From positions 139,460-171,459 of the forward strand of contig NZ_NIDE01000020.1 in NCBI RefSeq assembly GCF_002197845.1: a stretch of 32,000 nucleotides of DNA, given 5' to 3'. Origin of the DNA: Fimbriiglobus ruber (GTDB taxonomy: Bacteria > Planctomycetota > Planctomycetia > Gemmatales > Gemmataceae). The translations under genes and the position numbers were made by a program. A model generated the notes under the pieces. It was not told the DNA's origin, did not search any database, and saw only the letters and a program-made list of their open reading frames with translations. Of this stretch, positions 1,937 to 32,000 are shown piece after piece (within the stretch, counting starts at the first letter, position 1; each line of letters opens with the position of its first letter).

Positions 1937-3865
1937 TCAATCGGCCGGCGGTTCCTCCTTCGGTTTCCGTTTTCGGTCCCATCGCGACGCGACCGCGGGT
2001 CGCACCTTGAGTTCGCGGTACGGGTCGGTCAAGCCTTCGGCCGCCATCAGCCGAGCGTACGCGTACGCCCGTTTCACGGTCATCCGGTTGATGTCCAGTT
2101 CGGCGGCGATCTCGTTGAGGCTCGCGTCCGGGCGGGCCGCCTTGGCCGCCAGGCACGCCGGCAGGTGACGGACGTGGACGGGCGGTTGGAACAGGTCGAG
2201 CGTCGTCGACGCCTCGAACGGCGGCTCCCCGGGGGCCGCCCAGGCGTCGAACCGGAGGGTGATCGTGGCCCGGGGCCGGATCGCCGGGCGGTCGAGTTGT
2301 TGGACCGGGCGGATGACGAAGACCGGGAGCAACCGCCGCAGGATCTCGGCGAACTCCGCGGAGGTCTCGGCCATTCGCTCGATCGCTTCGTCCAGGCGGG
2401 CGGCCACGTCGGCGGCCGAGGTGAATTCCCCGGCCGCATCGTGCTCCTCGGCCACCCGGGACCGCTCGCCGCGAGCGGCTTGGAGGGCGTCCTGAACCTC
2501 TTTCAACTCGGTCACCAGCGCCTCGAGTTCCCCGCCCAGGCCGATCGCGGTCGCGAGTCGCTTCGCCCGGACCTCGAGATCCGCGATCTGCCCGTCGAGG
2601 GTGTTCCCGGACTTCTGGCGGCGGCGGCGGTGCCGCCCGAACTCGGCCCAGGCGGCGGCCGCGAGGGTCTCCCGAAACCCCGCCTGGTCGCCGATGATGC
2701 TCATGACCCACGGGATCACGACGGCCCGAACCGTAGCGATGTCGACCTGGACGTGATTCCAGCAACTCCGGGTGCTCCCGGCGAGCGTGTTCTGGCAACG
2801 GAGCAACGTGCCGTACTGATACATCCGGCCGCCGCAACACCCGCACGTCGCGCTCTGGCCCGGCCACCGCGTCCGTTTCCGCGGCTGCCGCCAGAGCGGG
2901 TTCTCTTTGCCCGCCCGCTGCCGCTTCGCCGACGCGGTCCGGCGGGCCTCCACGACCTCCAGGACCGCCGCGTGCTCGTCGGGCGTCAGGTGGCCCAATT
3001 CGGGGTACTCTTTCTCCTCGGGCGGGGCCGGGTTCGGGCACGACCGGTGTTTCCCGGTCCCGTACACCATTTTCGTGATGGTCGTCCGGAACCGCCGCCG
3101 CCCGCTCAGGATCGGGTCGCGGAGCAAGTCCTTGACCGTCCGCCCGGTCCACTGCTCGCGGTCCACGTACGCGCCCGGCGAAACCCCGTCCTGGTTCAAC
3201 CGGTCGGCGACCCGCACGTAACTCCACCCCGCGACCACCCACGCGGCCATCTGGCGGATTGTAGCCGTACAGTCCGGCCGCTTGGCGATCCGCAGGCCGA
3301 CCGGACCGAAGGTCCCGCCGGCCGCCTCCTCCCGGGTCAACTTACGGTACCCGTACTTGATCTTGAGGACCATTCCGCCGTGGGCGAACGACGACGTCGC
3401 CTTCCGCCGCACCCGCTGCCGCGCCTCCGGCACCGTCATCCCGTGCCGCAGCGACGCCGTGTGCATCATGACTTCCCAGTTCACGTCGGCCGTGTCAATG
3501 TTGTCGGCGAGCGACACGAACCGGACATCGGCGTCCAGGCACGCCTGGACGAAGCCCCACTGCATGCGGGGGTTCCGGTAGATCTCCCGCAGCTCGGTCA
3601 CGAGGACCAGGTCCCAGTCTCCGGACGTGACGAGTTCGTCGGCCTCGACCATCGTCTGCCGGTCGACGACCCAGCCACTGGCCTGCTCGCCCAACCGCCG
3701 GATCTCGGTCGGACCCGCGTACACCCGCTGTAACCACCGCTCCGCGTCCTCGTGTTGCGAGGTGATACTCGCCATGTCTTGACCGGGGGTCGAGATGCGG
3801 CCCGGGATGATCACCCGTAGGACTTTGTCGGTGCCCCGGGGGACGAGAGGTGTTCCGAGATTCAT
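1937..3865 (-). CDS. Large serine recombinase (642 aa) with an extra C-terminal HTH
   Basis: ATG at 3865 preceded by GAAAGGAGGTG. N-terminal resolvase-type catalytic domain (VLRVIIPGRISTPGQ, with the Ser nucleophile context). Recombinase domain, then a Cys cluster (CGCCGGRMY...C...C, zinc ribbon), a long coiled coil and a terminal SLNEIAAELDINRMTVKRAY helix-turn-helix. The 840-aa version in the ORF track is an upstream extension overlapping the neighbouring gene. Confidence 0.9.
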   Translation of the reverse strand: MNLGTPLVPRGTDKVLRVIIPGRISTPGQDMASITSQHEDAERWLQRVYAGPTEIRRLGEQASGWVVDRQTMVEADELVTSGDWDLVLVTELREIYRNPRMQWGFVQACLDADVRFVSLADNIDTADVNWEVMMHTASLRHGMTVPEARQRVRRKATSSFAHGGMVLKIKYGYRKLTREEAAGGTFGPVGLRIAKRPDCTATIRQMAAWVVAGWSYVRVADRLNQDGVSPGAYVDREQWTGRTVKDLLRDPILSGRRRFRTTITKMVYGTGKHRSCPNPAPPEEKEYPELGHLTPDEHAAVLEVVEARRTASAKRQRAGKENPLWRQPRKRTRWPGQSATCGCCGGRMYQYGTLLRCQNTLAGSTRSCWNHVQVDIATVRAVVIPWVMSIIGDQAGFRETLAAAAWAEFGRHRRRRQKSGNTLDGQIADLEVRAKRLATAIGLGGELEALVTELKEVQDALQAARGERSRVAEEHDAAGEFTSAADVAARLDEAIERMAETSAEFAEILRRLLPVFVIRPVQQLDRPAIRPRATITLRFDAWAAPGEPPFEASTTLDLFQPPVHVRHLPACLAAKAARPDASLNEIAAELDINRMTVKRAYAYARLMAAEGLTDPYRELKVRPAVASRWDRKRKPKEEPPAD

Positions 3866-5217
3866 CGGGCACCTCCTTTCGCGACCCCGGCGGCCCAGGC
3901 GAGCGACGCCGGCCACCGCCGCAGGGCGGCCTCGATCTGCCCCCGCTGGGTCTCCGGTCGGGTGTGCGTGTAATTCGCCGTCATCCCCAGCCCCCCGCCC
4001 GGCGGCCGGTGGCCGAGGGTAATCTGGCGGACCAGGGGGTCGACGTTGGCGTCCTGTAGGAGCGTCGCGAACGTGTGCCGCCACGATTTCGGGCACGTCG
4101 CGTCGGGGCGGCCGAGGGCGGCCATCGTTCGTACGAACGACGCGCGGACATCGTCCGCCCGGACCGCCCCCGCGTCCTTCCAGACAGATCGCGCGACCCG
4201 CAGGGCGTCCGCCCGGGACGCCCCCGATCCGCTGCCCTCTTGCCGCTGGAGGCAGACCCGTTCCAGCTCGCGGTGGTCGCCGCTCAGAGCCGGGGTGGTC
4301 CCGCGCTCGAACGACTCCCGGAGGAAGACCGGACCGGACCGCCGGGGGCCGATCACCCGCCGGAGGACGGCCACCCCCTCGGGGAGAACCGGGACGGACC
4401 GCTCCGACCCCGTCTTGATCCGCCACCCGAGGGCGGTTTTGTTCCGGACGTGCAACCACCCGGCCGCAAGGTCCAGGTCCTCAATGAGCAAGTGGGTCAA
4501 CTCGCCGACCCGGAGCCCGGTCTTGGCCAGCGTGAAATGAATCGGCCCGGCCCACGGGGACGCGGACATCAGGAACGCCAACTCAGTGGCCGCATCGAAC
4601 ACGAAAATCGGTTTCGCATCGGTGATCGTCATCCGGTCGAGCGGGAGTTCGGCGAATGGGTTGCCGGCATACGGCGGCAGGTGCCGCCGCTTGGCCGCGA
4701 ACGCGTACATCGCTCGGCACGTTTCCAGAATAAATTGGACGCCCTTGTCGCGGAGTCGCCTTCGGGCGGTGTTCGGGTGCCCGTTCGGGGCAACCTCGAC
4801 CACCCGCAGGTGGGCGACGAAGCGGTCGGGGTTGACATCGTGGGCCAGCGGCGGGCGGGGTTGGCGGGCGGCGAAGTCGGCCAGGTGACGGGTGGCCGCG
4901 CGATACCGGGTGACGGTCGCCAGCGAGGAGTTGAGAACGTGTTCGTGGTAGATGAGGAATTCGTCCCGCAGCGCCGCCACGCTGACCGGGGTGAACGCCA
5001 ACAGGGTCGGGGCGCCGGCCGCCAACTGGGCGTTGACCTGGGCGGCCACCCGGACGGCCTCGTCCTTCGTCGCGGCGACTTTCCGGCGGACCGGCCGCCC
5101 GGCGTCGCGGTAGTACACCCACCACGCGCCGTGGTGGAAATAGACGGACACCCGGCCGACGCGGTGCCGAGCCGGCCGACCCTTCTTGCGAGACGACACG
5201 ATCACACTCCCGTGCAC
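3862..5217 (-). CDS. Tyrosine recombinase / integrase (451 aa)
   Basis: GTG at 5217. Catalytic signature RVGELTHL (Arg), SWRHTFATLL (H-x-x-R), TLGHRP and MTANYTHT (Tyr). The stop TGA overlaps the serine recombinase start (ATGA at 3862-3865). Confidence 0.9.
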   Translation of the reverse strand: MHGSVIVSSRKKGRPARHRVGRVSVYFHHGAWWVYYRDAGRPVRRKVAATKDEAVRVAAQVNAQLAAGAPTLLAFTPVSVAALRDEFLIYHEHVLNSSLATVTRYRAATRHLADFAARQPRPPLAHDVNPDRFVAHLRVVEVAPNGHPNTARRRLRDKGVQFILETCRAMYAFAAKRRHLPPYAGNPFAELPLDRMTITDAKPIFVFDAATELAFLMSASPWAGPIHFTLAKTGLRVGELTHLLIEDLDLAAGWLHVRNKTALGWRIKTGSERSVPVLPEGVAVLRRVIGPRRSGPVFLRESFERGTTPALSGDHRELERVCLQRQEGSGSGASRADALRVARSVWKDAGAVRADDVRASFVRTMAALGRPDATCPKSWRHTFATLLQDANVDPLVRQITLGHRPPGGGLGMTANYTHTRPETQRGQIEAALRRWPASLAWAAGVAKGGAR

Positions 5218-5240: not shown

Positions 5241-5320
5241 AGAGACGTGTCGATGACGGAGGGAAAATGACGCAAGCGATTGGAATTTATCGGCTTACGT
5301 CACGCGAACAGAAAATGAAA

Positions 5321-5408
5321 CGGAGAGGGAGGGATTCGAACCCTCGGTAAGGACAAGCCCTACTCCGGTTTTCAAGACCGGCCCATTAAACCACTCTGGC
5401 ACCTCTCC
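5321..5408 (-). tRNA. tRNA-Ser (anticodon UGA), class II with a long variable arm, no encoded CCA
   Basis: The reverse complement reads GGAGAGGTGCCAGAGTGG...CCGGTCTTGAAAACCGG...GAGGGTTCGAATCCCTCCCTCTCCG. It has a 7-bp acceptor stem, the anticodon loop CT-TGA-AA, a long extra arm, a GTTCGAATC T-loop and discriminator G. Confidence 0.95.
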
Positions 5409-5442
5409 AAATATTGATCTCCTTACGTGTCAACATCTTGCG

Positions 5443-6591
5443 TCATTTGCTCGGATCCTCACTTGTTACTGTTTCGAACGTATGGCAAACCCGTGGCAAA
5501 CCGGAACTAATTGGCTCCACTGGGGCATTGTACATCCCCAGGAAGGCGTCGGTGAGACGGATCTGATCGTTTTGCAGGGCGTGACCGTAGACCCGCAGGA
5601 CCATCGACGGGTCGGAGTGCCCGAGGCGGCGGGCCACGCTCAGAACGTTGGCGCCGCTCGACATAAGGAGGGTGGCTCCTGTGTGGCGCAGTTCGCCCGG
5701 CACCCATCCCTTCAGGCCGGCGGCTGCGGCCAGCACCTTCCACTGCGAAACGAGTCCGTAGTAGGAGATGTGGCCGCGAGACGTACCGGGGAAGATCCAA
5801 TCGGTCGACTTGCAGACCTTGCGGTAGGTGTCCAAAGCCGTAATCGTCGGCATAGTCAGCGGGACGGTACGCCGGCTGAATTCGTTTTTCAGCCCCTTCA
5901 CCTCTCCAGTCTCGGGGCAGATGGCTCTCACGATTTTGATTTGCCGGCCGTCGTAGTCTTCCCAGCGGAGGGCGATCAGTTCTCGGGGTCGCGTACAGCA
6001 CTCCACCCCGAGCCGGACGATGATTCCGAAGTGCGGCCGTTTGGCGAAATCGTCGGCGACTTTCACGAGGCCGACGAACTGCTCCAATGTGAGCGATCGC
6101 CGTTTCGCCCGAACCACCTTCGGGGGCGTGATTTTATCGAGCGTCGAATTCGGTAACGTGGGATGGGAGCGGAGTATCTTCGAGAGCGTGGAGAACGCGC
6201 GGTGCCGCTGGTCGGCGGACTTGCCGGCCTTCATCATGCTCGTCAGCCACTTGCGTACCTTCGCGGCCAGCTCGACATGATCAGCGACGAGACACTTCGC
6301 CAGGTCGGGACGTATCAGCGACTCAATCACTTCCTTGTCTCGGCCGACCGTCTTGGCCTCTACCTGCGTCTCTTGAATCGCAATCCATTCGTCCAGCCAT
6401 TCCCCGAGCGTACCCGAATCCTTTGGCCGGTCGACGTGCTCGCGGATCCACGCCAGGGCATCCGTCTTCCGGTCGAATACCTTGGATCGGCCTGGACCGT
6501 TCGGCCCCGGGAGTTTCGCGCGGAACTGGCCGTCGCCATGCGGTAGGGCAGACCCTTCACCTTGCCCGCGGGAGCCTTTTTTTTTGGCCAC
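5443..6591 (-). CDS. int: Phage-type tyrosine integrase (382 aa)
   Basis: GTG at 6591 with AAGGAG 7 nt upstream. Motifs TRPRELIALRW (Arg), LRHTGATLL (H-x-x-R) and LGHSDPSMVLRVYGH (His..Tyr). Codons 3-5 form an A9 run. Confidence 0.9.
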   Translation of the reverse strand: MAKKKGSRGQGEGSALPHGDGQFRAKLPGPNGPGRSKVFDRKTDALAWIREHVDRPKDSGTLGEWLDEWIAIQETQVEAKTVGRDKEVIESLIRPDLAKCLVADHVELAAKVRKWLTSMMKAGKSADQRHRAFSTLSKILRSHPTLPNSTLDKITPPKVVRAKRRSLTLEQFVGLVKVADDFAKRPHFGIIVRLGVECCTRPRELIALRWEDYDGRQIKIVRAICPETGEVKGLKNEFSRRTVPLTMPTITALDTYRKVCKSTDWIFPGTSRGHISYYGLVSQWKVLAAAAGLKGWVPGELRHTGATLLMSSGANVLSVARRLGHSDPSMVLRVYGHALQNDQIRLTDAFLGMYNAPVEPISSGLPRVCHTFETVTSEDPSK

Positions 6592-6931: not shown

Positions 6932-7138
6932 ATGTTCAAAGATAAACCACGGCATCTGAAGCTCTTCGTCGCCTCATCCCCGCGTCTCCACCCCATCCTC
7001 CTCTCCGCCCTCCGCGACCTGCTCCTCTCGGGCGACGTGGCCGCCCCGACGGTGTGGGCCGCGATGACGGGGGAGAGTCCGCCGCCAGGGGCGAGACTAG
7101 TGAACCAGGTGAAAAGAATTTCGCGAGAATCGTATTGA
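6932..7138 (+). CDS. Hypothetical protein (68 aa)
   Basis: ATG 4 nt after the preceding stop. Strong GC3 bias (ctc ttc gtc gcc tcc ccg ...). No motif recognised. Confidence 0.45.
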   Translation: MFKDKPRHLKLFVASSPRLHPILLSALRDLLLSGDVAAPTVWAAMTGESPPPGARLVNQVKRISRESY

Positions 7139-7163
7139 CACCTGTTTTATAGGGAGCTAATAT
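7135..7163 (+). promoter_or_regulatory. Sigma-70-type promoter TTGACA-N17-TAATAT
   Basis: TTGACA at 7135-7140, a 17-nt spacer, and TAATAT at 7158-7163, 45 nt before the ATG at 7209. It sits in an AT-rich patch. Confidence 0.5.
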
Positions 7164-11711: not shown

Positions 11712-11740
11712 TTGACACGCCGGACAACGCCGACTAATAT
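11712..11740 (+). promoter_or_regulatory. Sigma-70-type promoter TTGACA-N17-TAATAT, with the same hexamers as at 7135
   Basis: TTGACA at 11712-11717, a 17-nt spacer, and TAATAT at 11735-11740, 46 nt before the ATG at 11787. It lies in the divergent region shared with the RHH operon. An adjacent imperfect palindrome TGCAA-N12-TTGCA (11682-11703) is centred on AATTAATT. Confidence 0.5.
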
Positions 11741-19391: not shown

Positions 19392-19434
19392 AGGTCAAGT
19401 CTCCGTTGAGTGAGTCGGGGTCAGGGGAGGAGGT

Positions 19435-22886: not shown

Positions 22887-23435
22887 TTACTCCGAAACGA
22901 AGTCGGCTTTGACCGCCGCCCCGTCCTTGTCGGCCCGCGGGTACAGCGTGACTTCCAGAGACCGGACCGCTTGTGCCCCGGCAACTTCCGCCCGGGTGGC
23001 GGGCTTGCCGTTGAGCGTGATCTTCGACTCCGGATCTTTGAAAACGACGGGGAACGTCACCCCCTGATCCTGGTAGCTGAGGGTGAGCAGCAGGGTCGAT
23101 TGAAATGCGAAGTCGTTGACCACGACCATGCTAACAACCGTACCGTGCTCCTTGGGGCGAGGCATGGCCTTCGGGGCCGGCGAGGGCTGCACTGCATCGT
23201 GGATGAACTCCCACCGCCGCAATTCCTGGTGGAATCGGTAATGGCCCGTCACGCCCTTCGGGGGCACCGGCAGGGTCGACACGGCGGGGGCGGCCGGGTA
23301 CGCGACCTGATGGAAGGCCGGGGCGGCTGAGGGTGCGAATTGCGGGGCCGGACACCCGAGCGGGCCACATTGGGCCGAGGCGAGTCCGGCCGACGTCAGG
23401 GCGAGAATCGACGTGAGTAAAAGCTTCTTCCGCAT
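22887..23435 (-). CDS. Secreted protein (182 aa)
   Basis: GGGAGG upstream of the ATG. Signal peptide MRKKLLLTSILALTSAGLASA-QC. A Pro/Ala-rich linker is followed by a beta-rich domain. Confidence 0.75.
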   Translation of the reverse strand: MRKKLLLTSILALTSAGLASAQCGPLGCPAPQFAPSAAPAFHQVAYPAAPAVSTLPVPPKGVTGHYRFHQELRRWEFIHDAVQPSPAPKAMPRPKEHGTVVSMVVVNDFAFQSTLLLTLSYQDQGVTFPVVFKDPESKITLNGKPATRAEVAGAQAVRSLEVTLYPRADKDGAAVKADFVSE

Positions 23436-23479: not shown

Positions 23480-23506
23480 ACTCTACCGCGGCCCGTTGCC
23501 TGAGTG
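23480..23506 (-). promoter_or_regulatory. Candidate promoter CACTCAGGCAACG-N8-TAGAGT (read on the minus strand), 44 nt upstream of the ATG at 23435
   Basis: The motif lies at 23494-23506 and the hexamer at 23480-23485. The architecture and the spacing to the start codon match the site upstream of the sigma-factor gene. Confidence 0.5.
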
Positions 23507-23571
23507 AGTGCTTCTCCCCCGGCAGATCGCACCGGAAGGGGCTAACGGAGAAGGTGCGATGCGGCGGGGAA

Positions 23572-23790
23572 CTAGCCTTCGAGATTCGCTTGCACGAAGC
23601 ACGGGGCACAGATCGGCCGACCGTGGGTAAACGTCCACAGGAGTCCCACGACATCCTCACAGCCATGAAGCCGCCGTTCGGAGTCGCGTGAGACGAGATC
23701 GCCGCAGACGTGACAATTGCAGACGAGCAGGGCATCGGGGAGGAGGTCGAGCATGTCACCGTCGGTCAGGTCGGGCGGGTCGGAAGTCAT
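23572..23790 (-). CDS. Small Cys-rich protein (72 aa)
   Basis: Contains CNCHVCG ... C ... CAPC. ATGA-coupled start at 23787-23790. Confidence 0.6.
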   Translation of the reverse strand: MTSDPPDLTDGDMLDLLPDALLVCNCHVCGDLVSRDSERRLHGCEDVVGLLWTFTHGRPICAPCFVQANLEG

Positions 23791-24032
23791 TGCTGCCCCA
23801 GCGGGAAGGGTTCGGTGCCGTCGTCCACAGGCGCGTCAGTCCGGAGCGTCTTGTAGATCCATCCATACCCGTTGAGATGTTCGAGGCTGAAATCCGAGAG
23901 AAGTGGGTCGTCAGTCTCGCCCTGGATCGCGATCGCCATCACCGCCGGGTCGCCACGCCACGCTTCCCAGAACCTGACGTACCGCCAGGACGCAATGCTC
24001 AGAACCATGCGGTGGAACGCGGCGAGAGTCAC
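23787..24032 (-). CDS. Hypothetical protein (81 aa)
   Basis: The GTG at 24032 forms a GTGA overlap with the upstream stop. Confidence 0.55.
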   Translation of the reverse strand: MTLAAFHRMVLSIASWRYVRFWEAWRGDPAVMAIAIQGETDDPLLSDFSLEHLNGYGWIYKTLRTDAPVDDGTEPFPLGQQ

Positions 24033-24145
24033 GGGTGGGCACCCCGGAGGAGGAACAGGACGTACAGACTGAGGCCCATGATGGCGGCCAGAGCGCCGCC
24101 GGAAGCGACGACACCAAGCCAGAAGGCGAAGCGGGCACCGGCCAT
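24029..24145 (-). CDS. 38-aa hydrophobic peptide
   Basis: The ATG at 24145 overlaps the upstream stop (TGATG). Sequence MAGARFAFWLGVVASGGALAAIMGLSLYVLFLLRGAHP. Confidence 0.45.
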   Translation of the reverse strand: MAGARFAFWLGVVASGGALAAIMGLSLYVLFLLRGAHP

Positions 24146-24366
24146 CAGGGGCACACGTGTTGAGGAATAAAAAAGTGCCCCGCCAAAGCGCCCATCGCGA
24201 ACACGAACGTAATGAGCAGCCACAGTTTGCGACTACTCCAAGCCATGATCTGGTAGGAAATCGTTGCGTTGTTCCCCCAGATCCGGTACGCGAGGTAGTC
24301 GTACAGGAGGATCGCGGGGGCCGCGAGGACGATCAGGATTAGGGTCAGAGTTTCGCCGGTGTTCAT
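24145..24366 (-). CDS. Holin-like protein with two transmembrane helices (73 aa)
   Basis: GAGAGG upstream of the ATG. TM1 is LTLILIVLAAPAILLYDYLAY and TM2 is LWLLITFVFAMGALAGHFF. It lies directly after the tail-fibre genes, the usual holin position. Confidence 0.6.
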   Translation of the reverse strand: MNTGETLTLILIVLAAPAILLYDYLAYRIWGNNATISYQIMAWSSRKLWLLITFVFAMGALAGHFFIPQHVCP

Positions 24367-24376
24367 GTGATACCTC

Positions 24377-24904
24377 TCATGTCGTCAGGGGATCGCCTGC
24401 CCCGGCCGCCAACAGCCCGAGCGTGGTGGTGACGATCGTGGCCTGGTCGAGCCTTGCTCCGCACTGAGCGGCCACGGTCGCGGGGTCGGTCGCACCGGCG
24501 ATGCCGCCCGGTCCGCGGTTCGCTGCAATTTGGGCGGTGATCGCAGCGGCAGTGGGCATGGCCACGTTGGCCGCCGCCGCGATCAATTGGAGGGTCGCCC
24601 AGAGCCCTTCGGCCACGTCGTTCACCCGGTAGTGGAGGGCCGCGTCCCCGGCCCTGGCCCCCGTTGCGGTCGGTGAGACGCCGCCGAGCATGTCCGCCTG
24701 GGCCGACTGCGTTAGCCACGTCGTCGTTGCCGCGGTCAAGTCGCCGACCGTGTCCGGCAGCGGTCCGCCGATCTGGGGCGGCGGCCCCGACCAATAAAAT
24801 ACCTGATACCCGGGGTACAAAGCCGGGTTAACGGTGGTGTCATCGTGAGTCGCAAATATGCTCCCCGTAACGCCGTCCGCGTTGATGGACGCGACAATTT
24901 GCAT
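24377..24904 (-). CDS. Hypothetical protein adjacent to the tail fibres (175 aa)
   Basis: The ATG at 24904 overlaps the upstream stop (TGATG). Ala/Thr/Gly-rich. Its position suggests a fibre accessory or assembly role, but I recognised no motif. Confidence 0.6.
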   Translation of the reverse strand: MQIVASINADGVTGSIFATHDDTTVNPALYPGYQVFYWSGPPPQIGGPLPDTVGDLTAATTTWLTQSAQADMLGGVSPTATGARAGDAALHYRVNDVAEGLWATLQLIAAAANVAMPTAAAITAQIAANRGPGGIAGATDPATVAAQCGARLDQATIVTTTLGLLAAGAGDPLTT

Positions 24905-26604
24905 CACAGTGCCCGGAAGTTCGTGAGTTTCGGGTAAGCCGTGTACGACCCGCTGCCGAGGTAGTACCACCCGCACCCGGCCGACAGCAGCGTGTTCGCG
25001 TAGGTCGAGTCAGTGGCTGTTATGATCGTGGTCCCGTCGAGCTGGACCGTGATAGATGAACCCAACATGATCACGGTCAGAGTGTGTGTGGCGCTCGCGG
25101 CCCACGAGAAGGTGTAGGCGGTCCCGAGTACCGTCGCCGCGTTGGACACGAACTTTTGTAGGGTGACTTTCCCCGTGTTCGTGTCATAGGCCACCTGATA
25201 CCCGTTCTGGTTGATCGTGCCGGTCCCGAGGCGAGTCCAGATCTCGCCGGCCCAACTGCCCGACGCCGGGGCCGTAAAGTCGCATGAAATCGTGTAATCG
25301 CCCTTCCCCAGGTTCATGTAGCAGATCGTGTTGCCGCTACTCGCCCCGGCTTGAATCAGAGCGTTACCACTAATCTGTCCAGTCCCGCCGACGATTGACC
25401 ACGCCGGCCCCCACGTAGGGGTGTGAGCGGTGATATTCGTACTCGTGGTGTCGATAAAAGCGTCATACGCCGTCATCCCGTTGAACCCGGGACCAGACAC
25501 TAAAGCGCCATAGTTACTAACGATACCGAGCGGCGGACTGAACAGTGCCGTGTTGCCGACATTGACGGCGGTCAATGGGTAGGTACACGCTGCTACGGTG
25601 ACTTTGGCTCCCTGTTGCGACAATACGACCTGAGAATTCCCGTAGAACTGGACCGCTTGAAGTAACGCTTCCCCGCCATACGCCGCACTGACCGCGGCCG
25701 AGGTGCAGTAGGTAATGAGGCCGCCGAAAAGCTGGACGTGGCCCATGCCGGCCGTCAGGTCGATTCCAGCCCCGCAGGCGCTGATACTGAGTCCGGTATT
25801 TGATGAAAAAAAGAATCCGGGTCCATACGTCCGGACTCCGATCGTACACCCGGTGATAGAAATGGTCCCGGAGGTGTTGAGTTCGCCGTCCCCGATTTGG
25901 GCGCCGGTCGTGAGGTTTTCAATCGTGCATGCCGTTATTGTCGTTCGGGACCGTCCCGTCTGGTTGATGCCGGTCTGACCATTGATCGTCGTGCCGTTAA
26001 TTGTGAGATTGGAAACCGTCAATCTCACGTTGTCGGCCGCCACGGTGATGCAAGTGGCCGACGCCGCAACAGTCAATATTGTACTGCTGCCATTAATAAT
26101 CAGACTGCCGCTTTGCGGTCCATTGATCGTGACCGCCGTGTTGGCGAAAGTCTGACTCGCCAGAGCCAGCGTCACGCTATTCGTCGGCGCGACTTCGCAA
26201 TCTCGACAGAATAGTAACGCGTTGGCGATCGTCGTGAACCGGGACGACGTGCCGACCGCCAGGGATACGTTGGCCGCGACGAACCACAGTTTCCAGTACG
26301 TGTAGGCGTCGGTCGTCGGGTCGTTACCCGTGGTCGAGGCGATGCACTGGTAGTAGTTCCCGTCACTCCCGATGACGACGGCTCCGGCCCCGTAGGTCGT
26401 CGTTGACAAGTAAGTTGCTAGACCGTCTTGCAACAGTGCGAACGTCCCGGCCTTGTCCGGGAGCGTAAATGTGCGAGCAGCCGTCAACCCTGTGGGGTCC
26501 ACCACAGCGAGCCCGAGTTCCAAAGCATCGGTGCCCGACTGGAACTCGTCCGACGCGAGAGTCGACGAGTCTCGGTAGAGCGGGCTGCGAGGGGTGCCGG
26601 CCAC
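24904..26604 (-). CDS. Tail fibre/tailspike with a parallel beta-helix middle part and a lectin-like C-terminal domain (566 aa)
   Basis: GTG at 26604. Repetitive T/S/G/N-rich rungs (LTVSNLTINGTTINGQTGINQTG..ITACTIENLTTGAQIG..ISITGCTIG...) are typical of pectate-lyase-like beta-helices. YYQCIASTTGNDPTTDAYTYWKLW is a fibre-type motif. The C-terminal ~180 aa is a beta-sandwich-like sequence. Confidence 0.8.
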   Translation of the reverse strand: MAGTPRSPLYRDSSTLASDEFQSGTDALELGLAVVDPTGLTAARTFTLPDKAGTFALLQDGLATYLSTTTYGAGAVVIGSDGNYYQCIASTTGNDPTTDAYTYWKLWFVAANVSLAVGTSSRFTTIANALLFCRDCEVAPTNSVTLALASQTFANTAVTINGPQSGSLIINGSSTILTVAASATCITVAADNVRLTVSNLTINGTTINGQTGINQTGRSRTTITACTIENLTTGAQIGDGELNTSGTISITGCTIGVRTYGPGFFFSSNTGLSISACGAGIDLTAGMGHVQLFGGLITYCTSAAVSAAYGGEALLQAVQFYGNSQVVLSQQGAKVTVAACTYPLTAVNVGNTALFSPPLGIVSNYGALVSGPGFNGMTAYDAFIDTTSTNITAHTPTWGPAWSIVGGTGQISGNALIQAGASSGNTICYMNLGKGDYTISCDFTAPASGSWAGEIWTRLGTGTINQNGYQVAYDTNTGKVTLQKFVSNAATVLGTAYTFSWAASATHTLTVIMLGSSITVQLDGTTIITATDSTYANTLLSAGCGWYYLGSGSYTAYPKLTNFRAL

Positions 26605-26608
26605 TTAA

Positions 26609-27235
26609 TCACCCCGCCGTCTTGATCGGCGTTTGTGGCTGGAACTGGACCTGCGTTGCAGAGAGGGCCACGCCCAACACCTGGGCCGTCTGCCCCGCGG
26701 TGTACGTCGGGATCGTGGTGGTCCCCACCCCAGCCGTGGCATTCGAGAGGACAACCGTGCTCCCGGGCGTCATCCCGGACACGTTCGAGTTGATCCCGCT
26801 CATGTAGATCGTGTTGGCGGCCGGCGACGTCGACGCTGTAGTAACGTAGCCGTGTGCCCATTTCCCGTTCGTCGTCCCGTCCGCTTTCTGGATTGTCGCG
26901 ACCCCGGAATTGCTCCAGACATGAACCCACGCCCCGGCCGCCAGAGTGTCCGACGTGGGCAACGAAATCGTGTCCGGTCCGACGCCAGTCGGGAGGACGG
27001 TAACGTCGAGTTGGCCCCCGGAATTCAGTAACGGGATCTTTCCCGAACTCCCCGCGCCGGCACTGACAATCGTCGTGTTGAGCAGCGACGTGTCGACCTG
27101 GGCCGACGAATTTAGGGCGACGGGATTGCCAGCTACGGCCTGGGTGTCTGTCGACAATTGGGCCGGGCGAATGTCGTCCAAAATCCCGGTCGTCGGGTCT
27201 CGCCCGGCGAGCATGGTTGCCGTGGAGCTTGACAT
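26609..27235 (-). CDS. Tail-fibre protein (208 aa)
   Basis: GSSGKIPLLNSGGQLDVTVLP is the common fibre N-terminal motif (G.ip.Ln..G.ld...lP). The rest is T/S/A/G-rich. Confidence 0.75.
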   Translation of the reverse strand: MSSSTATMLAGRDPTTGILDDIRPAQLSTDTQAVAGNPVALNSSAQVDTSLLNTTIVSAGAGSSGKIPLLNSGGQLDVTVLPTGVGPDTISLPTSDTLAAGAWVHVWSNSGVATIQKADGTTNGKWAHGYVTTASTSPAANTIYMSGINSNVSGMTPGSTVVLSNATAGVGTTTIPTYTAGQTAQVLGVALSATQVQFQPQTPIKTAG

Positions 27236-27238
27236 TAT

Positions 27239-27799
27239 TTACACCGCGAGGGTTATTGGGGGTTGTGGGTCTATGAACACCGTCTGGGCACCGATTGCGT
27301 ATCCAACAACGAGCGAAAACACGGATGACGGAGCAGTCGGCGGGCTCTGGGTCAACGCCCCTGCCACACCCAGAAAGACTGGACCTAGAGACCAATTCCA
27401 ACTCGGCTCCGTGACAGGTCCGTAAGCCGTCACGTTCACGGTTTCTCCCATGGCCGCCGCACTCGCCGATAACCCGTATGCTTGCGAAAGACTCCCGGTC
27501 TGAGTCGCGTCGGCGTAGACCAAGCCGGTGGCAGTAAGCCGAACAACTCGTTGCCCCCCGATATCGACGGCCGCAATCGCGGTGTACCCGTTCGATCCAC
27601 CTTGCGGGCCGACGGGTCCCTGCTTCCCCTGCGGCCCCTGTCTCCCCGGAGCCAATACATACCTCGGGTCGCTGCGCACCACGACCGCCGGCCCGGCCAC
27701 AACAATCGCATTCTGCGGGGCAGCCGACTCGATCGACTCTTGCGCCACGCCCGCGATCACTTGCGGCTGCTCCTCCGCAATCAGTTCGGGGCCGCTCAT
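27239..27799 (-). CDS. Collagen-like-repeat tail-fibre protein (186 aa)
   Basis: A G-x-y run, GRQGPQGKQGPVGPQGG, is followed by a fibre-like C-terminal domain. ATGA-coupled start at 27796-27799. Confidence 0.75.
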   Translation of the reverse strand: MSGPELIAEEQPQVIAGVAQESIESAAPQNAIVVAGPAVVVRSDPRYVLAPGRQGPQGKQGPVGPQGGSNGYTAIAAVDIGGQRVVRLTATGLVYADATQTGSLSQAYGLSASAAAMGETVNVTAYGPVTEPSWNWSLGPVFLGVAGALTQSPPTAPSSVFSLVVGYAIGAQTVFIDPQPPITLAV

Positions 27800-28203
27800 G
27801 GGGGTGCGATCCTCCCCCGGAACGCCGTCATGGACCCATACGCCAACGGGGTCGCCGTCCCTAGCGGGTCAATCGTGTTGAGGGACGGGTTGTAGATGTT
27901 GAGTTGGTACGTCAGCACGACGCACGTCTGCCCAGCCGCCAAGAGCCCACCTGTCTGGATGCCCCACGTCGTGGCTTGCGCGACCGTCCAGTTAATCGCC
28001 CCCGTCGATCCGAGGGTCGCGATGGTCGGCGGGTCTGTTTCGGTCGACAGCGTGAATACGGTGCCACCGCCGCACGGGGCGATCGCCGTGAGGGTCGCCT
28101 TCCACCCCGTCAGGTCGATAGCATTGCCGTTCGGGTCGACGTAAATAACGCCGTCCTCGTACGTCCCGCCGCAAACGAACGAAGTGTCATACTCGACGGC
28201 CAC
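27796..28203 (-). CDS. Small beta-rich tail-associated protein (about 135 aa)
   Basis: GTG at 28203 with GAGGTG 6 nt upstream (alternatives 28209 and 28212). AVEYDTSFVCGGTYEDGVIYVDPNGNAIDLTGWKATLTA... The 372-aa ORF-track version overlaps the upstream gene in another frame. Confidence 0.6.
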   Translation of the reverse strand: MAVEYDTSFVCGGTYEDGVIYVDPNGNAIDLTGWKATLTAIAPCGGGTVFTLSTETDPPTIATLGSTGAINWTVAQATTWGIQTGGLLAAGQTCVVLTYQLNIYNPSLNTIDPLGTATPLAYGSMTAFRGRIAPP

Positions 28204-28249
28204 GGGCAACACCTCAGTTTGTGCCGGGAACGTGCCGCCCGTTCGGGAA

Positions 28250-28954
28250 CTACGCCGCCACCAACCGCCCCTCCTCCTCCACGTCAGCCGTCGAAGACGC
28301 GGCGCGACGATACACCAGCGGGGCGATCGGCTCGAATAGCCCCAGCCGGCGCCACACCGCGTAATGAGCCAATGCCGCTTCCTTGGAAATGAAGAGGCTG
28401 CACGGCACCGGCTGGACCGCGCGGGAATACCGCCCGTGCTCCCCCCGCGGGTGGTCCAACGGCTGATACCCCCGAGAGACGGGCGGCAGTACGACTTGCG
28501 GCACCCCCCAGACATGAGCCACCAGCCGGAAGCCCCGCTTCGCCAGAACCTTCCGGCCCCGCTCATTGCAAACCACAACATCCGGGTTACCCCGCACCCG
28601 TTGAATCTCGTAGGTGCAGATCTCCCGGCCCCGATACACGGCCACCCAGTTCGGCCCGTAGTGATACCGGCACCAAAGGACGAGGGCATTGACGGCCGCG
28701 ATAACGCTGGGGTAAGTGCCGAACTTCTTCTTGGTGAAAGGGTCGGCCACGCGGAAGGTGGTGCCCTCCGGACGCCGGTAGATGTGGTGGTATCCGATGT
28801 CCGCAATGGGATCTGAGTTGCGGAACTCGTCCCGCTCGGCCTGCGTGATGCGTGCGTTGCCTGAGTGAGCCAATGAATACGACGACACGTCCGCACCCCC
28901 GTGATAGAATTCACGTGAGGCGGTTGCGTTGGGCCGGGGGAACTTGTCCGGCAA
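28250..28954 (-). CDS. Hypothetical protein with two AP2-like DNA-binding-domain patterns (234 aa)
   Basis: TTG at 28954 with GGGGGAGAG upstream. GYHHIYRRPEGTTFRV...KKKFGTYPSVIAAVNALVLWCRYHYG and a second ...SLFISKEAALAHYAVWRRLG loosely fit the AP2 pattern Y.GV....f.a.......LG.f.t.eeAa.aY. This is a weak call. Confidence 0.6.
   Translation of the reverse strand: MPDKFPRPNATASREFYHGGADVSSYSLAHSGNARITQAERDEFRNSDPIADIGYHHIYRRPEGTTFRVADPFTKKKFGTYPSVIAAVNALVLWCRYHYGPNWVAVYRGREICTYEIQRVRGNPDVVVCNERGRKVLAKRGFRLVAHVWGVPQVVLPPVSRGYQPLDHPRGEHGRYSRAVQPVPCSLFISKEAALAHYAVWRRLGLFEPIAPLVYRRAASSTADVEEEGRLVAA
28855..28867 (-). promoter_or_regulatory. Third copy of the 13-mer CACTCAGGCAACG, inside the 5' part of CDS 28250-28954, with no TAGART hexamer
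   Basis: An exact 13/13 match on the same strand as the other two copies. It is followed by CACGCATC-ACGCAG rather than N8-TAGART. Confidence 0.3.
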
Positions 28955-29008
28955 AGACTCTCCCCCGGCCTCTCTTCTTGTCCCGTGATTATGTTTGCGA
29001 GGTGGGAA

Positions 29009-29617
29009 CTACCGCTCCCCGTCGTCCGTCATGTGCTCCCTGAGCATCCCCACCGCCTCGCCCATCAACTGATCCACTCGCCCCTGCGTCAGTCCCATGA
29101 TCGTCGCCGTCGTCTTCTTGCTGGCCGGGTCGCCACCGATGCCGGCCCGCAGTTTCACGACCGTTCGATGCGGCTCCGGGAGATATCGAACTGCCTCGCG
29201 CAACTGAACCATCTCCCCCGCCGCGTCCAGCTCCGCTTCGCCGCTCGCCCGCTGGTCGGCTAGCCCTTCCCACCCGTCGTCGTCGTCCTTCGTCTCGACA
29301 AACTGTTTGCCTGTTCGATCGTAGAACCTGACCAGTTCGACGATGGCCCCGCGGATAAACTTTGCCGCGTAGGTGTCGACCGTCTCGCCCCACCCCGGCT
29401 GCCAAGTCGCCGCCGCCTCGCACACCGCCTGAAGCACCGCCGCATTGACTTCGTCCCGCCGAAAGTGCCAGTGCGGGGCGTAGACCATTGCCGCGACCTT
29501 GGGTGCCAGCATCTTCAGAATGGCCAGCGGCTCGGGATAGCGGCGGTAGAAGTCCAAGACGAGCTGTTGCTGGTGCTCGCTGAGGGTCGGCGTGGGGCGT
29601 GGCGGGGGCGTGTCCAC
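29009..29617 (-). CDS. Sigma-70-family (ECF-like, regions 2 and 4) RNA polymerase sigma factor (202 aa)
   Basis: Region-2-like VNAAVLQAVCEAAATW...TYAAKFIRGAIVELVRF. Region-4 LPEPHRTVVKLRAGIGG...TTATIMGLTQGRVDQLMGEAVGMLREHM (HTH). GTG start at 29617. Confidence 0.8.
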   Translation of the reverse strand: MDTPPPRPTPTLSEHQQQLVLDFYRRYPEPLAILKMLAPKVAAMVYAPHWHFRRDEVNAAVLQAVCEAAATWQPGWGETVDTYAAKFIRGAIVELVRFYDRTGKQFVETKDDDDGWEGLADQRASGEAELDAAGEMVQLREAVRYLPEPHRTVVKLRAGIGGDPASKKTTATIMGLTQGRVDQLMGEAVGMLREHMTDDGER

Positions 29618-29661
29618 CAGTGGGTGGGACTCCGGACGGGGATAGTTTCGCGTGTTGGTGG

Positions 29662-29688
29662 ATTCTAGCGTGGGGCGTTGCCTGAGTG
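29662..29688 (-). promoter_or_regulatory. Candidate promoter CACTCAGGCAACG-N8-TAGAAT (read on the minus strand), 44 nt upstream of the sigma-factor start
   Basis: The motif lies at 29676-29688 and the hexamer at 29662-29667, in the 76-bp intergenic region upstream of 29617. Confidence 0.5.
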
Positions 29689-29693
29689 GCTAA

Positions 29694-30180: not shown

Positions 30181-32000
30181 TTATGCCTTCCCCCATTTCC
30201 CCAGCGGGCAGGCTTCCTGCGGATACCACACCTTTCCCGGCTGGTCCTCCTTTTGCCCGGGTGCGAACCCCGCCGGCTTCACGTCGAGCGGACACCCGCA
30301 CTGTGAGCAGCGGTCGTCCTTCCCGCGGGCCGGGCAGATGAGACACAGCGAGTACCGCTCCTTCGCCTTATCCTCGCTGACGAAATGAGAGCCGCCCAAC
30401 CAGTGCCGCACCTTTGCGGCCCCGAAGTTCGCGATCTGCCGGGCGACGTTTGGAAGGTCCGGCTTGTCCTCGGGCCGACACCCGAGAACCATCAGCCCGT
30501 GATTGTTCTCGTACGATTCGAGGACCGTCCACTCCCGATGACTTTCCATGAACTTCGCGAGACCGGCCACGACACCAGGACCGCCGTCGTCCCCCTTGAC
30601 GCCGAACGTGTTGGCGTCCGTACAGTGGACGACGATGTACCGGGAGACCGCGCCGGCCAGTCGGTCAAGGGTCTGGTGGACGGCCGATGCCGTGTGGTGG
30701 GTGTCGAGGAACAGGAGGTCGGTCGGCTCAATCTTTGCCCGGTCGAGATTCGTCACGTCGACCGTCAGCCCCCGGAATCCCGCCTCCCCGCGTTCGGCTG
30801 TGGCACTCTGCCAGTCGGGCTTGACCGCCGTGAAGTAGCTGCAAAACCGCTTGGCCTTGCTCGCTGCGAGAGCCGCGAACGCAGGGGGCTTGAACCACGC
30901 CGATACCTCCGTCACGTGGTCGCACTTGTCGGCCAGTGCCTTCAGCCGCTCTACATGCTCGTGGAAGTCGCTCGGAGTCGCCTTTGCCACAGCGTACAGG
31001 TCCACCAGCGGGGGTGCCTTCGACGTCTGCCCGCACGGGACACACCCAGCGGCAGGCTCTGTCGCTTTCGGCTTCACTACCTCGGCCGGGAACCAGTTCG
31101 GCGCCGGCCCCCAGAACTTGTGATCCGTGATCGGTCGGCCGCTCAGTTGCCCGCTCTTGGCCTCGTAGCAGACGGCCGCGTGCCCTGTGAACACCCCGGG
31201 GGTGTTGACGTGGATGGATGGGGGGCAATTGGGATCAACGGTCAGGCGGACCCACTTCGAGCGGTCACCGTCGTGGTCCGGTTCGAGGATGACGGACCGG
31301 CCGCCCTCCCCCTCCTTGGCCGCCCGCTCCAGGTTCCGGAGGGCAACGCCGGTCCGCATCGTCAGTTGGTGCAACGGCTCGTGACGCTCCTTGACCGCGA
31401 GCCAACCGGTTTCGTTGAGTCCTTCGTAGTTCAGGTTGCTGATGACCGGAGATTCAGGGTTCCTCGCGAGGGCATCCCCGATCCGGTCGAAGTACCCAGG
31501 CGGGTAAAGGACATCGTGTTCGAGGAAGACAATGGCGTCGAACTCAATCGGCCCCTGAACAAGAATGGCCTGTTTGATCTGCTTGACGATGGTAGCGTGG
31601 GAGCGGGTTCGATCCTTCACATCCAAGGTCGTGTTGATAAACGGGTTGCCGGGAATTACCCCCCAATCGCACGTTGAAACAAAAACCTCGTGCCGCCCCC
31701 GCTCGTTGGACTCATCGGCCGCCCGCTTGATCGTCGCGAGGGACCGCTGAAGCAACGCGACCGGCTTCGTGTTGTCCGAGTACCAGACCCCCAGAAGCCG
31801 TTGCTTCTTGATTGGCAACGCCCGTTGGCCGAACGGCTGGATCTTCTCGGCCTGAACTGCAACTTGCTCGAACTGCAGCCGCGGGAACGCCGAATGATTG
31901 CCTGCTAGCAGCGACGGTGAGCCGCTGTTGACGTGCGCCGTCCAAACCTGCTCCGTCGCCTCGATCCCCAATTCCCGGTGCCCGATCAGGAGGTTCCTGA
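30181..32000 (-). CDS. Large multidomain protein: GT-A-like N-terminal region, Methyltransf_24-like SAM methyltransferase domain and a Cys-rich C-terminal module. The 5' end may lie outside the window.
   Basis: The frame stays open from the TTG at 31971 to the window edge. AIVFLEHDVLYPPGYF is a glycosyltransferase-like acidic motif (tentative). TPSDFHEHVERLKALADKCDHVTEVS...DLLFLDTHHTASAVHQTLDRLAGAVSRYIVVHCT...NNHGLMVL fits the SDI.EHL..L / D.lFiDt.H.y / i.hDt pattern. The C-terminus is CLICP...CSQCGCPLDVK...CPLGKWG. Confidence 0.75.
   Translation of the reverse strand, partial: RNLLIGHRELGIEATEQVWTAHVNSGSPSLLAGNHSAFPRLQFEQVAVQAEKIQPFGQRALPIKKQRLLGVWYSDNTKPVALLQRSLATIKRAADESNERGRHEVFVSTCDWGVIPGNPFINTTLDVKDRTRSHATIVKQIKQAILVQGPIEFDAIVFLEHDVLYPPGYFDRIGDALARNPESPVISNLNYEGLNETGWLAVKERHEPLHQLTMRTGVALRNLERAAKEGEGGRSVILEPDHDGDRSKWVRLTVDPNCPPSIHVNTPGVFTGHAAVCYEAKSGQLSGRPITDHKFWGPAPNWFPAEVVKPKATEPAAGCVPCGQTSKAPPLVDLYAVAKATPSDFHEHVERLKALADKCDHVTEVSAWFKPPAFAALAASKAKRFCSYFTAVKPDWQSATAERGEAGFRGLTVDVTNLDRAKIEPTDLLFLDTHHTASAVHQTLDRLAGAVSRYIVVHCTDANTFGVKGDDGGPGVVAGLAKFMESHREWTVLESYENNHGLMVLGCRPEDKPDLPNVARQIANFGAAKVRHWLGGSHFVSEDKAKERYSLCLICPARGKDDRCSQCGCPLDVKPAGFAPGQKEDQPGKVWYPQEACPLGKWGKA

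Follow-up and report, generated by a model that had tools for sequence, protein, structure and literature searches.

Evidence for a phage-specific class of late promoters in a prophage of Fimbriiglobus ruber and candidate factors for its recognition

Introduction

In the sigma factor cascade of the Bacillus phage SPO1, gp28 serves the middle genes and gp33/gp34 the late genes, and the middle promoters of phage T4 combine a MotA box at -30 with a sigma-70 -10 element, with the participation of AsiA. Promoters of group 3 sigma factors (FliA/WhiG) are characterized by short spacers and extended -35 and -10 elements, TAAAGTTT-N11-GCCGATAA. Bipartite late promoters have also been described for phage-encoded sigma factors, eight in the case of gp47 of phage 7-11 and six in that of gp36 of phiEco32 (PMC8948821). 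Here we analyze a repeated promoter-like motif and the sigma factors that might read it in a prophage of Fimbriiglobus ruber (Planctomycetota, Gemmataceae). The starting point was a stretch of 32,000 nucleotides (nt), hereafter the window, which corresponds to C20:139460-171459 (C20 being contig NZ_NIDE01000020.1) in a genome of 12.36 Mb and roughly 64% GC. The prophage extends over 95.4 kb (C20:144869-240277) and is integrated at a tRNA-Ser gene, the window covering its left third only.

To our knowledge, the control of transcription in phages of Planctomycetota is almost entirely unexplored, and we know of no earlier description of such a promoter class in a planctomycete phage. Genetic tools for these bacteria are scarce (PMC11958385). 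An earlier note on the window had called attention to a repeated 13-mer and proposed a dedicated late promoter class, read by the sigma factor of the phage and with positive autoregulation. In what follows, positions refer to the window unless a contig is indicated.

Results and discussion

A 13-mer in a promoter-like context

The exact 13-mer CACTCAGGCAACG is present in three copies in the window, at 23494-23506, 28855-28867 and 29676-29688, all of them on the minus strand. Coordinates and orientation agree with the earlier note, which had assigned the repeat to the late-operon strand and considered it well beyond chance; in 100 dinucleotide-preserving shuffles no exact match was obtained. 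Two copies are part of putative promoters (motif promoters from here on) and the third one stands alone. The features concerned are listed below, with scores from the weight matrix described in the next section:

29662-29689, minus strand: putative motif promoter of sigA, with CCACTCAGGCAACG, 8 nt, TAGAAT and 44 nt to the GTG at 29617 (39.1 bits)
29009-29617, minus strand: sigA, encoding a sigma-70-family protein of 202 amino acids (aa), assigned with Pfam, profile, AlphaFold (AF2) and Foldseek searches
23480-23507, minus strand: putative motif promoter of a signal-peptide protein gene, with TCACTCAGGCAACG, 8 nt, TAGAGT and 44 nt to the ATG at 23435 (37.3 bits)
22887-23435, minus strand: first gene behind the preceding promoter, encoding a 182-aa protein with an N-terminal signal-peptide-like sequence
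23519-23532, minus strand: 14-mer GTGCGATCTGCCGG, 12 nt upstream of the 13-mer
28855-28867, minus strand: orphan 13-mer without a -10 hexamer, in the 5' coding part of the next feature
28250-28954, minus strand: open reading frame (ORF) of 234 aa (212 aa in the database version), immediately downstream of sigA

The common architecture of the two intergenic copies, with 8 nt between the 13-mer and the hexamer and exactly 44 nt from there to the start codon, had been correctly described, as had the sequence found in the -35 window when a 17-nt spacer is assumed (GCCACT or CTCACT). The ATG at 23435 is preceded by GGGAGG, and no Pfam family was found for the 182-aa protein. The third copy is intragenic, as previously pointed out, and no TAnnnT follows it; it shares 15 identical nt with the copy at 23494 and may be an operator or a decayed promoter. 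A degenerate version proposed at about 19399-19413 did not hold, since it reads CACTCAACGG, has no hexamer and scores less than 14 bits in the matrix scan.

Four motif promoters are preceded by the exact 14-mer GTGCGATCTGCCGG at a distance of 8-12 nt; besides the copy in the window, there is one at C20:178379-178392 and others near positions 238840 and 335760 of contig C9. One further exact copy was found at C4:707696, with about 0.2 copies expected by chance genome-wide.

Eighteen sites form a discrete class in the late region

The motif is not a common genomic repeat: in the whole genome (12.4 Mb) there are 12 exact copies of the 13-mer, nine of which are inside C20:162953-211626. A mismatch-tolerant search defined the core as TCAGGCAACG preceded by S-A-S. 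With 19 copies, TCAGGCAACG ranks first among the over-represented 10-mers of the element. When followed by TAnnnT after 7-8 nt, it appears 18 times in C20:162939-218493 and only twice elsewhere in the genome, both times in C9. The full signal genome-wide is SASTCAGGCAACG(S)-N5-G-N-TAGRAT, that is, the consensus S-A-S-T-C-A-G-G-C-A-A-C-G-(S), five variable bases, G at -14, one base and TAGRAT. With this hexamer at -12 to -7, the conserved block would extend from -33 to -20. Alignment of the sites on the hexamer (T-A-G-R-A-T) revealed an A at -32 and a G at -14 that are invariant and were both outside the search pattern, C or G at -20, and invariant T-12, A-11 and T-7. With a 15-nt spacer, SASTCA takes the place of TTGACA and GGCAACG becomes a conserved spacer block at -27 to -21; in one site of contig C19, TTGACA occupies the -35 place and GGCAACG comes directly after it.

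The 17 sites whose spacer is 8 nt were then used to build a weight matrix, with which both strands of the genome were scanned. Eighteen sites scored 32-40 bits and the next best reached 17.9 bits, a gap of 14 bits by which the promoter class can be considered discrete. The prophage sites comprise 17 of those from the matrix scan and one with a 7-nt spacer, and occupy a stretch of 55 kb devoted to morphogenesis and lysis. A search of the prophage for another bipartite class with a TAnnnT hexamer gave none.

All 18 prophage sites are located between C20:162939 and 218497. Fifteen share the minus strand with the late genes, and the other three are on the plus strand, ahead of plus-strand genes; two divergent intergenic regions (C20:187339-187408 and 211612-211681) harbor back-to-back pairs. 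Taking gene boundaries from rough codon-usage gene calls, 15 of the 18 hexamers are outside genes, compared with 19% of the region being non-coding (P ~7e-9), and the remaining three probably fall in ORFs whose longest-start call is too long. In at least nine sites a start codon is found 33-52 nt past the hexamer, and some sites are 250-390 nt from the next called gene. The series starts at C20:218470-218497, with a site that starts from the stop codon of the final gene in an operon containing a second sigma factor gene, sigB, and ends with a site heading lysis-side genes inside the window. The gene order before the first site is sigB, a 198-aa gene and a 303-aa gene:

C20:220551-221243, minus strand: sigB, 230 aa, with an RpoS/RpoD-like region 4 (NCBIfam)

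The idea of a dedicated late promoter class is strongly sustained by these data, given 18 near-identical sites that are intergenic, confined to the late region, co-oriented and separated from any other sequence by 14 bits, and we consider that they very probably correspond to a real, phage-specific class of late promoters.

Two particular arrangements were observed among the sites. At C20:189733-189767 an ATG is found 6 nt past the hexamer (TATGAT-CCTCCC-ATG), so that the mRNA produced from this site may be leaderless. In addition, a 127-nt inverted repeat (C20:175489-175615 and 180968-181094, with a 65-nt part that is 98% identical) flanks 5.3 kb and is made up of a motif promoter followed by around 100 nt of conserved leader. 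The genes behind the two repeats encode membrane-like proteins of 171 and 198 aa and have the leader and the last ~60 nt in common, with a diverged middle part. This structure may represent a cassette pair or an invertible segment.

Clusters of the motif were not found in 150 other genomes of the family, with at most one match per genome, nor in IMG/VR, where the strict pattern gave seven single matches. Among the matches listed from the genome and metagenome collections there were only singletons, in unrelated and mostly low-GC DNA.

Contrast with other promoter types

Two promoters of host type were identified in the window:

7135-7163, plus strand: TTGACA-N17-TAATAT, heading an early plus-strand block
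11712-11740, plus strand: second TTGACA-N17-TAATAT promoter

Similarly, host tRNA promoters conform to TTGACA-N16-17-TAAnAT; they are located 11-15 nt ahead of the mature 5' end and lack G at -14. The motif sites, whose -35 window is nYSAST, do not conform to the host primary-sigma promoter type (TTGACA-like -35, 16-18 nt, TAnnnT). Neither do they fit an extracytoplasmic function (ECF, group 4) promoter, with AAC in the -35 element, 16-17 nt and a CGT-type -10, since GGCAAC is 9 nt from TAGRAT and there is no conserved CGT at the expected place; nor a sigma-54 promoter (GG at -24, GC at -12, fixed 10-nt spacing), the positions 10-11 nt past GG being in the variable spacer.

Candidate readers

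SigA and SigB are sigma-70-family proteins and distant paralogues, with 25% identity. The sigma factor pointed out in the earlier note, SigA, is genuine, and its gene does lie 44 nt behind one of the promoters. Its region 4 is recognized by Pfam (Sigma70_r4, E 3.8e-6, 26.8 bits with a cut-off of 24.1); region 2 is weak alone (E 0.16), and a SigA paralogue passes the cut-off for this region. The profile of the 52-member SigA family aligns with RpoS, SigA, RpoD and FliA chains in PDB over positions 10-200 (E 1e-42 to 1e-25). In the AF2 model, with a predicted local distance difference test (pLDDT) value of 86, sigma2 (residues 14-102) is joined by a disordered linker (103-122) to sigma4 (123-201), which is helical with pLDDT >90, and there is no domain 3. 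All the top Foldseek hits of the model are sigma factors, and the best single-sequence matches in PDB and NCBIfam are of the FliA/WhiG type (group 3). SigB passes the NCBIfam sigma-70 superfamily cut-off (53.3 vs 42.9 bits).

The alignment of region 4 gives SRERVRQL as the recognition helix of SigB and the non-canonical TQGRVDQL as that of SigA. Within region 4.2 of sigma-70, the residues of a SigB-type helix are those that contact TTGACA. The canonical R-E-R-x-R-Q residues are absent from the SigA helix, and because of this departure SigA would be the better candidate for an upstream element other than TTGACA.

A word-based homologue search with SigA recovered only SigA itself, and an exhaustive search for sigma homologues yielded 179 distant matches, the best with 39% identity. 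No repeated promoter-like motif was found on the contigs of these homologues, which are short and of 70-78% GC. Regarding the product of ORF 28250-28954, there were no homologues, no Pfam match at E up to 10 and no PHROG family; it is a candidate DNA-binding protein, for which the AP2 leads were weak (cosine 0.84; template modelling score, TM, 0.29) and the AF2 model had a pLDDT of 35.

Which factor may read the motif promoters

We propose that the ~18 copies of the motif would stand in front of virtually all transcription units in the 55 kb devoted to packaging, head, tail, fibre and lysis, with host-type TTGACA-N17-TAnnnT promoters serving the early genes, and that at the motif promoters host core RNA polymerase would carry a phage-encoded factor of the sigma-70 family. 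We think it likely that a phage sigma factor plays this role. Our preferred reader, although held only tentatively, is SigA, which would use SASTCA as -35 element with a 15-nt spacer and GGCAACG as an added spacer block. Since its gene is located behind a motif promoter, SigA would amplify itself, and positive autoregulation is plausible; the first molecules could come from read-through, or be produced with the help of SigB, whose gene is found at the end of the early operon. As for the firing of the sites, its timing and the identity of the reader, these are things that we infer.

Several facts weigh against SigA, and the role assigned to it in the earlier note can be maintained only in part, considering SigB, the long block and the G at -14. 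It is sigB, not sigA, that is in the position of a late-gene switch, and with SigA as the sole reader some other way would be needed to express it first. At 14 bp (-33 to -20), the near-invariant block exceeds the usual contact of the sigma4 helix-turn-helix, and T-12, A-11, T-7 and G-14 are the signature of a primary sigma factor at extended -10 promoters. SigA has no domain 3, the usual reader of -14. In the SigA paralogue of C19 the recognition helix is different, although motif-like sites are present 6.5 kb away. Relatives suitable for a covariation test were not found among the sigma homologues. The sequencing runs listed comprised the DNA source and no RNA.

The first of these points leads to the possibility, in our view doubtful, that SigB from the early operon activates the whole set of 18 promoters, that of sigA among them, and SigA is a late product with some other role, such as the use of a few very late promoters, reinforcement, or competition with the host sigma factor. 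Among the regulators of the early operon, which runs on the minus strand from a start opposite a CI-like repressor, SigB comes last, and the first motif promoter comes directly after the sigB-198aa-303aa genes, which is the position of Q in lambda. Its score above the superfamily cut-off and the recurrence of paired sigma genes in related elements (the C19 island and metagenomic contig L026, see below) point in the same direction, and the bootstrapping problem of how SigA is first made would be solved. However, the SigB helix is of the canonical RpoD/RpoS type for a TTGACA-like -35, where the motif has SASTCA or GGCAAC, and no separate promoter class for SigA to read was found. The features of the -10 region suggest another explanation, namely that the extended -10 element (G-N-TAGRAT) is recognized by the primary sigma of the host and a phage protein bound to the 13-mer at -33 to -21 replaces the -35 contact, in the manner of MotA and AsiA at T4 middle promoters; the binder would be encoded by ORF 28250-28954 or be some other small protein of the phage. 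The four invariant positions and the use of TAnnnT -10 elements by the host would fit this mechanism, as would an asymmetric 13-14-bp block overlapping the spacer, normally beyond the reach of sigma4, and the orphan 13-mer inside the very ORF that adjoins sigA and has the weak AP2-like leads. We nevertheless regard it as unlikely: it leaves two phage sigma factors without a task, that ORF has no homologue and no confident fold, and no AsiA- or MotA-like protein was detected in a set of small ORFs that are mostly unannotated.

A more far-reaching reading, which we judge quite unlikely, would have the 14-bp block as the docking site of a separate phage protein, or of a sigma factor without domain 3 that touches the spacer, as an independently evolved MotA-like replacement of the -35 element, and the C9 elements described below as satellites sensing the late switch of their helper. 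Finally, the distance of 250-390 nt between some sites and the next called gene could be taken to indicate a cis element of another kind, for recombination, replication, packaging or antiterminator loading. This is very improbable, with TAnnnT at a fixed spacing and G at -14, sites strictly co-oriented with the downstream genes, back-to-back pairs in two divergent intergenic regions and many sites 33-52 nt before start codons; besides, eighteen dispersed copies are unlike pac, cos, ori or a single Q-type site.

Related elements on other contigs

Two elements of C9 with ~92% identity (C9:235982-241641 and C9:332901-339100) each carry a divergent promoter pair. On one side, an exact motif promoter (C9:238793-238820 and 335715-335741) heads genes for a 118-aa protein, an ECF-like sigma factor (180 aa; frameshifted in one copy) and an NrS-1-type primase. 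On the other side, a degenerate copy, xCAGGCAACG-N8-TATCCT, is found ahead of a ParB-methylase and small proteins. A partial third copy of the element is located at C10:92995-94960. No regulator common to the prophage and the C9 elements was found, a methylase being the only shared function. These elements may be satellites responding to the prophage.

An island with integrases in C19 contains a tandem array (C19:335457-337498) in which a 160-aa gene stands between a sigA-like gene (36% identity) and a sigB-like one. The same sigma-X-sigma layout is present in metagenomic contig L026. Three motif-like sites of C19 (C19:329050-329286), 6.5 kb from the sigma genes of the island, are beside a truncated dnaN-like start.

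Extent and gene layout of the prophage

The left end of the prophage is defined by these features:

5320-5409, minus strand: intact tRNA-Ser(TGA), left prophage end
5443-6591, minus strand: tyrosine integrase of the prophage (Pfam Phage_integrase, E 1e-19)

The 5' 43 nt of the tRNA gene (5366-5408) are duplicated, with three mismatches, at the right end (C20:240235-240277). This copy thus corresponds to the 5' half of tRNA-Ser, as opposed to the usual 3' part, and a different integrase island (1937-5217) occupies the 3' side. The tRNA was the sole match in an Rfam search.

Structural genes were placed by PHROG matches, as follows, together with the late gene that exits the window:

C20:213804-215453: large terminase
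C20:201977-205702: portal, 1241 aa
C20:200835-201980: protease
C20:192150-193613: major head protein
C20:181141-183297: tape measure protein
24904-26604: fibre-like protein
30181-32000, minus strand: 3' part of a gene of 835 aa that continues beyond the window

The next motif promoter upstream of the 835-aa late gene is beyond the window, at C20:174199-174226. The C-terminus of the portal is fused to a 2'-5' RNA ligase-like domain. In the right arm (C20:218.5-240 kb), a CI-like S24 repressor is encoded on the plus strand, and a long minus-strand early operon runs opposite to it, with genes for Bro-N, CsrA, PAPS-reductase-like, primase-polymerase, DUF5131, DNA methylase, dCTP deaminase and helix-turn-helix proteins, and with sigB at its end. 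The CsrA homologue is located at C20:236713-237057, and in metagenomic contig L024 the sigma homologue is likewise followed by a CsrA gene. A phage-encoded RNA polymerase was not found among the large ORFs.

A search for related prophages with the capsid protein gave homologues with 32-39% identity in 103 of 252 family genomes, none of them close. These homologues of the major head protein are usually found once per genome, which suggests that a conserved phage-derived element is widespread in the family.

Significance and comparison with known systems

The information obtained delineates a regulon from sequence alone, with 18 promoters above 32 bits, no look-alikes in a 12.4-Mb genome and two candidate cognate sigma factors. 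If the sigma-promoter pairing is true, it would provide an orthogonal sigma and promoter switch for these bacteria, and a clean system to learn how a sigma factor without domain 3 reads a block that runs into the spacer. The fact that two unrelated small elements carry this promoter too is a hint of cross-talk among mobile elements.

With SPO1, the prophage has in common more than one phage sigma factor, and the successive redirection of host core polymerase to phage-specific bipartite promoters would be a further likeness; SPO1 has two distinct promoter classes, as opposed to one detectable here, and sequence kinship is limited to the sigma-70 family. The motif promoters resemble T4 middle promoters in that a phage-specific box replaces the -35 element near a host-like TAnnnT -10, in many copies. 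Here, however, the box is longer and nearer to the hexamer, at a distance of 8 nt, the phage has its own sigma factors and no MotA/AsiA homologue was identified. As for the FliA/WhiG group, SigA scores 33.7 bits against a subfamily cut-off of 189.6 and has no domain 3, and the motif is unrelated in sequence.

We consider the sigma-dependent late promoters of 7-11 and phiEco32 to be the closest documented parallels, bearing in mind that the readers considered here are candidates. Those are virulent podoviruses with one sigma factor, whereas the phage studied here is temperate, measures 95 kb and has two sigma genes and 18 sites. The 7-11 consensus, GTAAtg-N16-aCTA, has a classical 16-nt spacer, in contrast to the contiguous 14-bp block reaching into the spacer, the TAGRAT -10 element and the G at -14 of the present promoters. 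What these systems would share is a phage protein of the sigma-70 family with region 4, a small number of highly similar promoters for the late genes, and early genes left to the sigma-70 of the host (PMC8948821).

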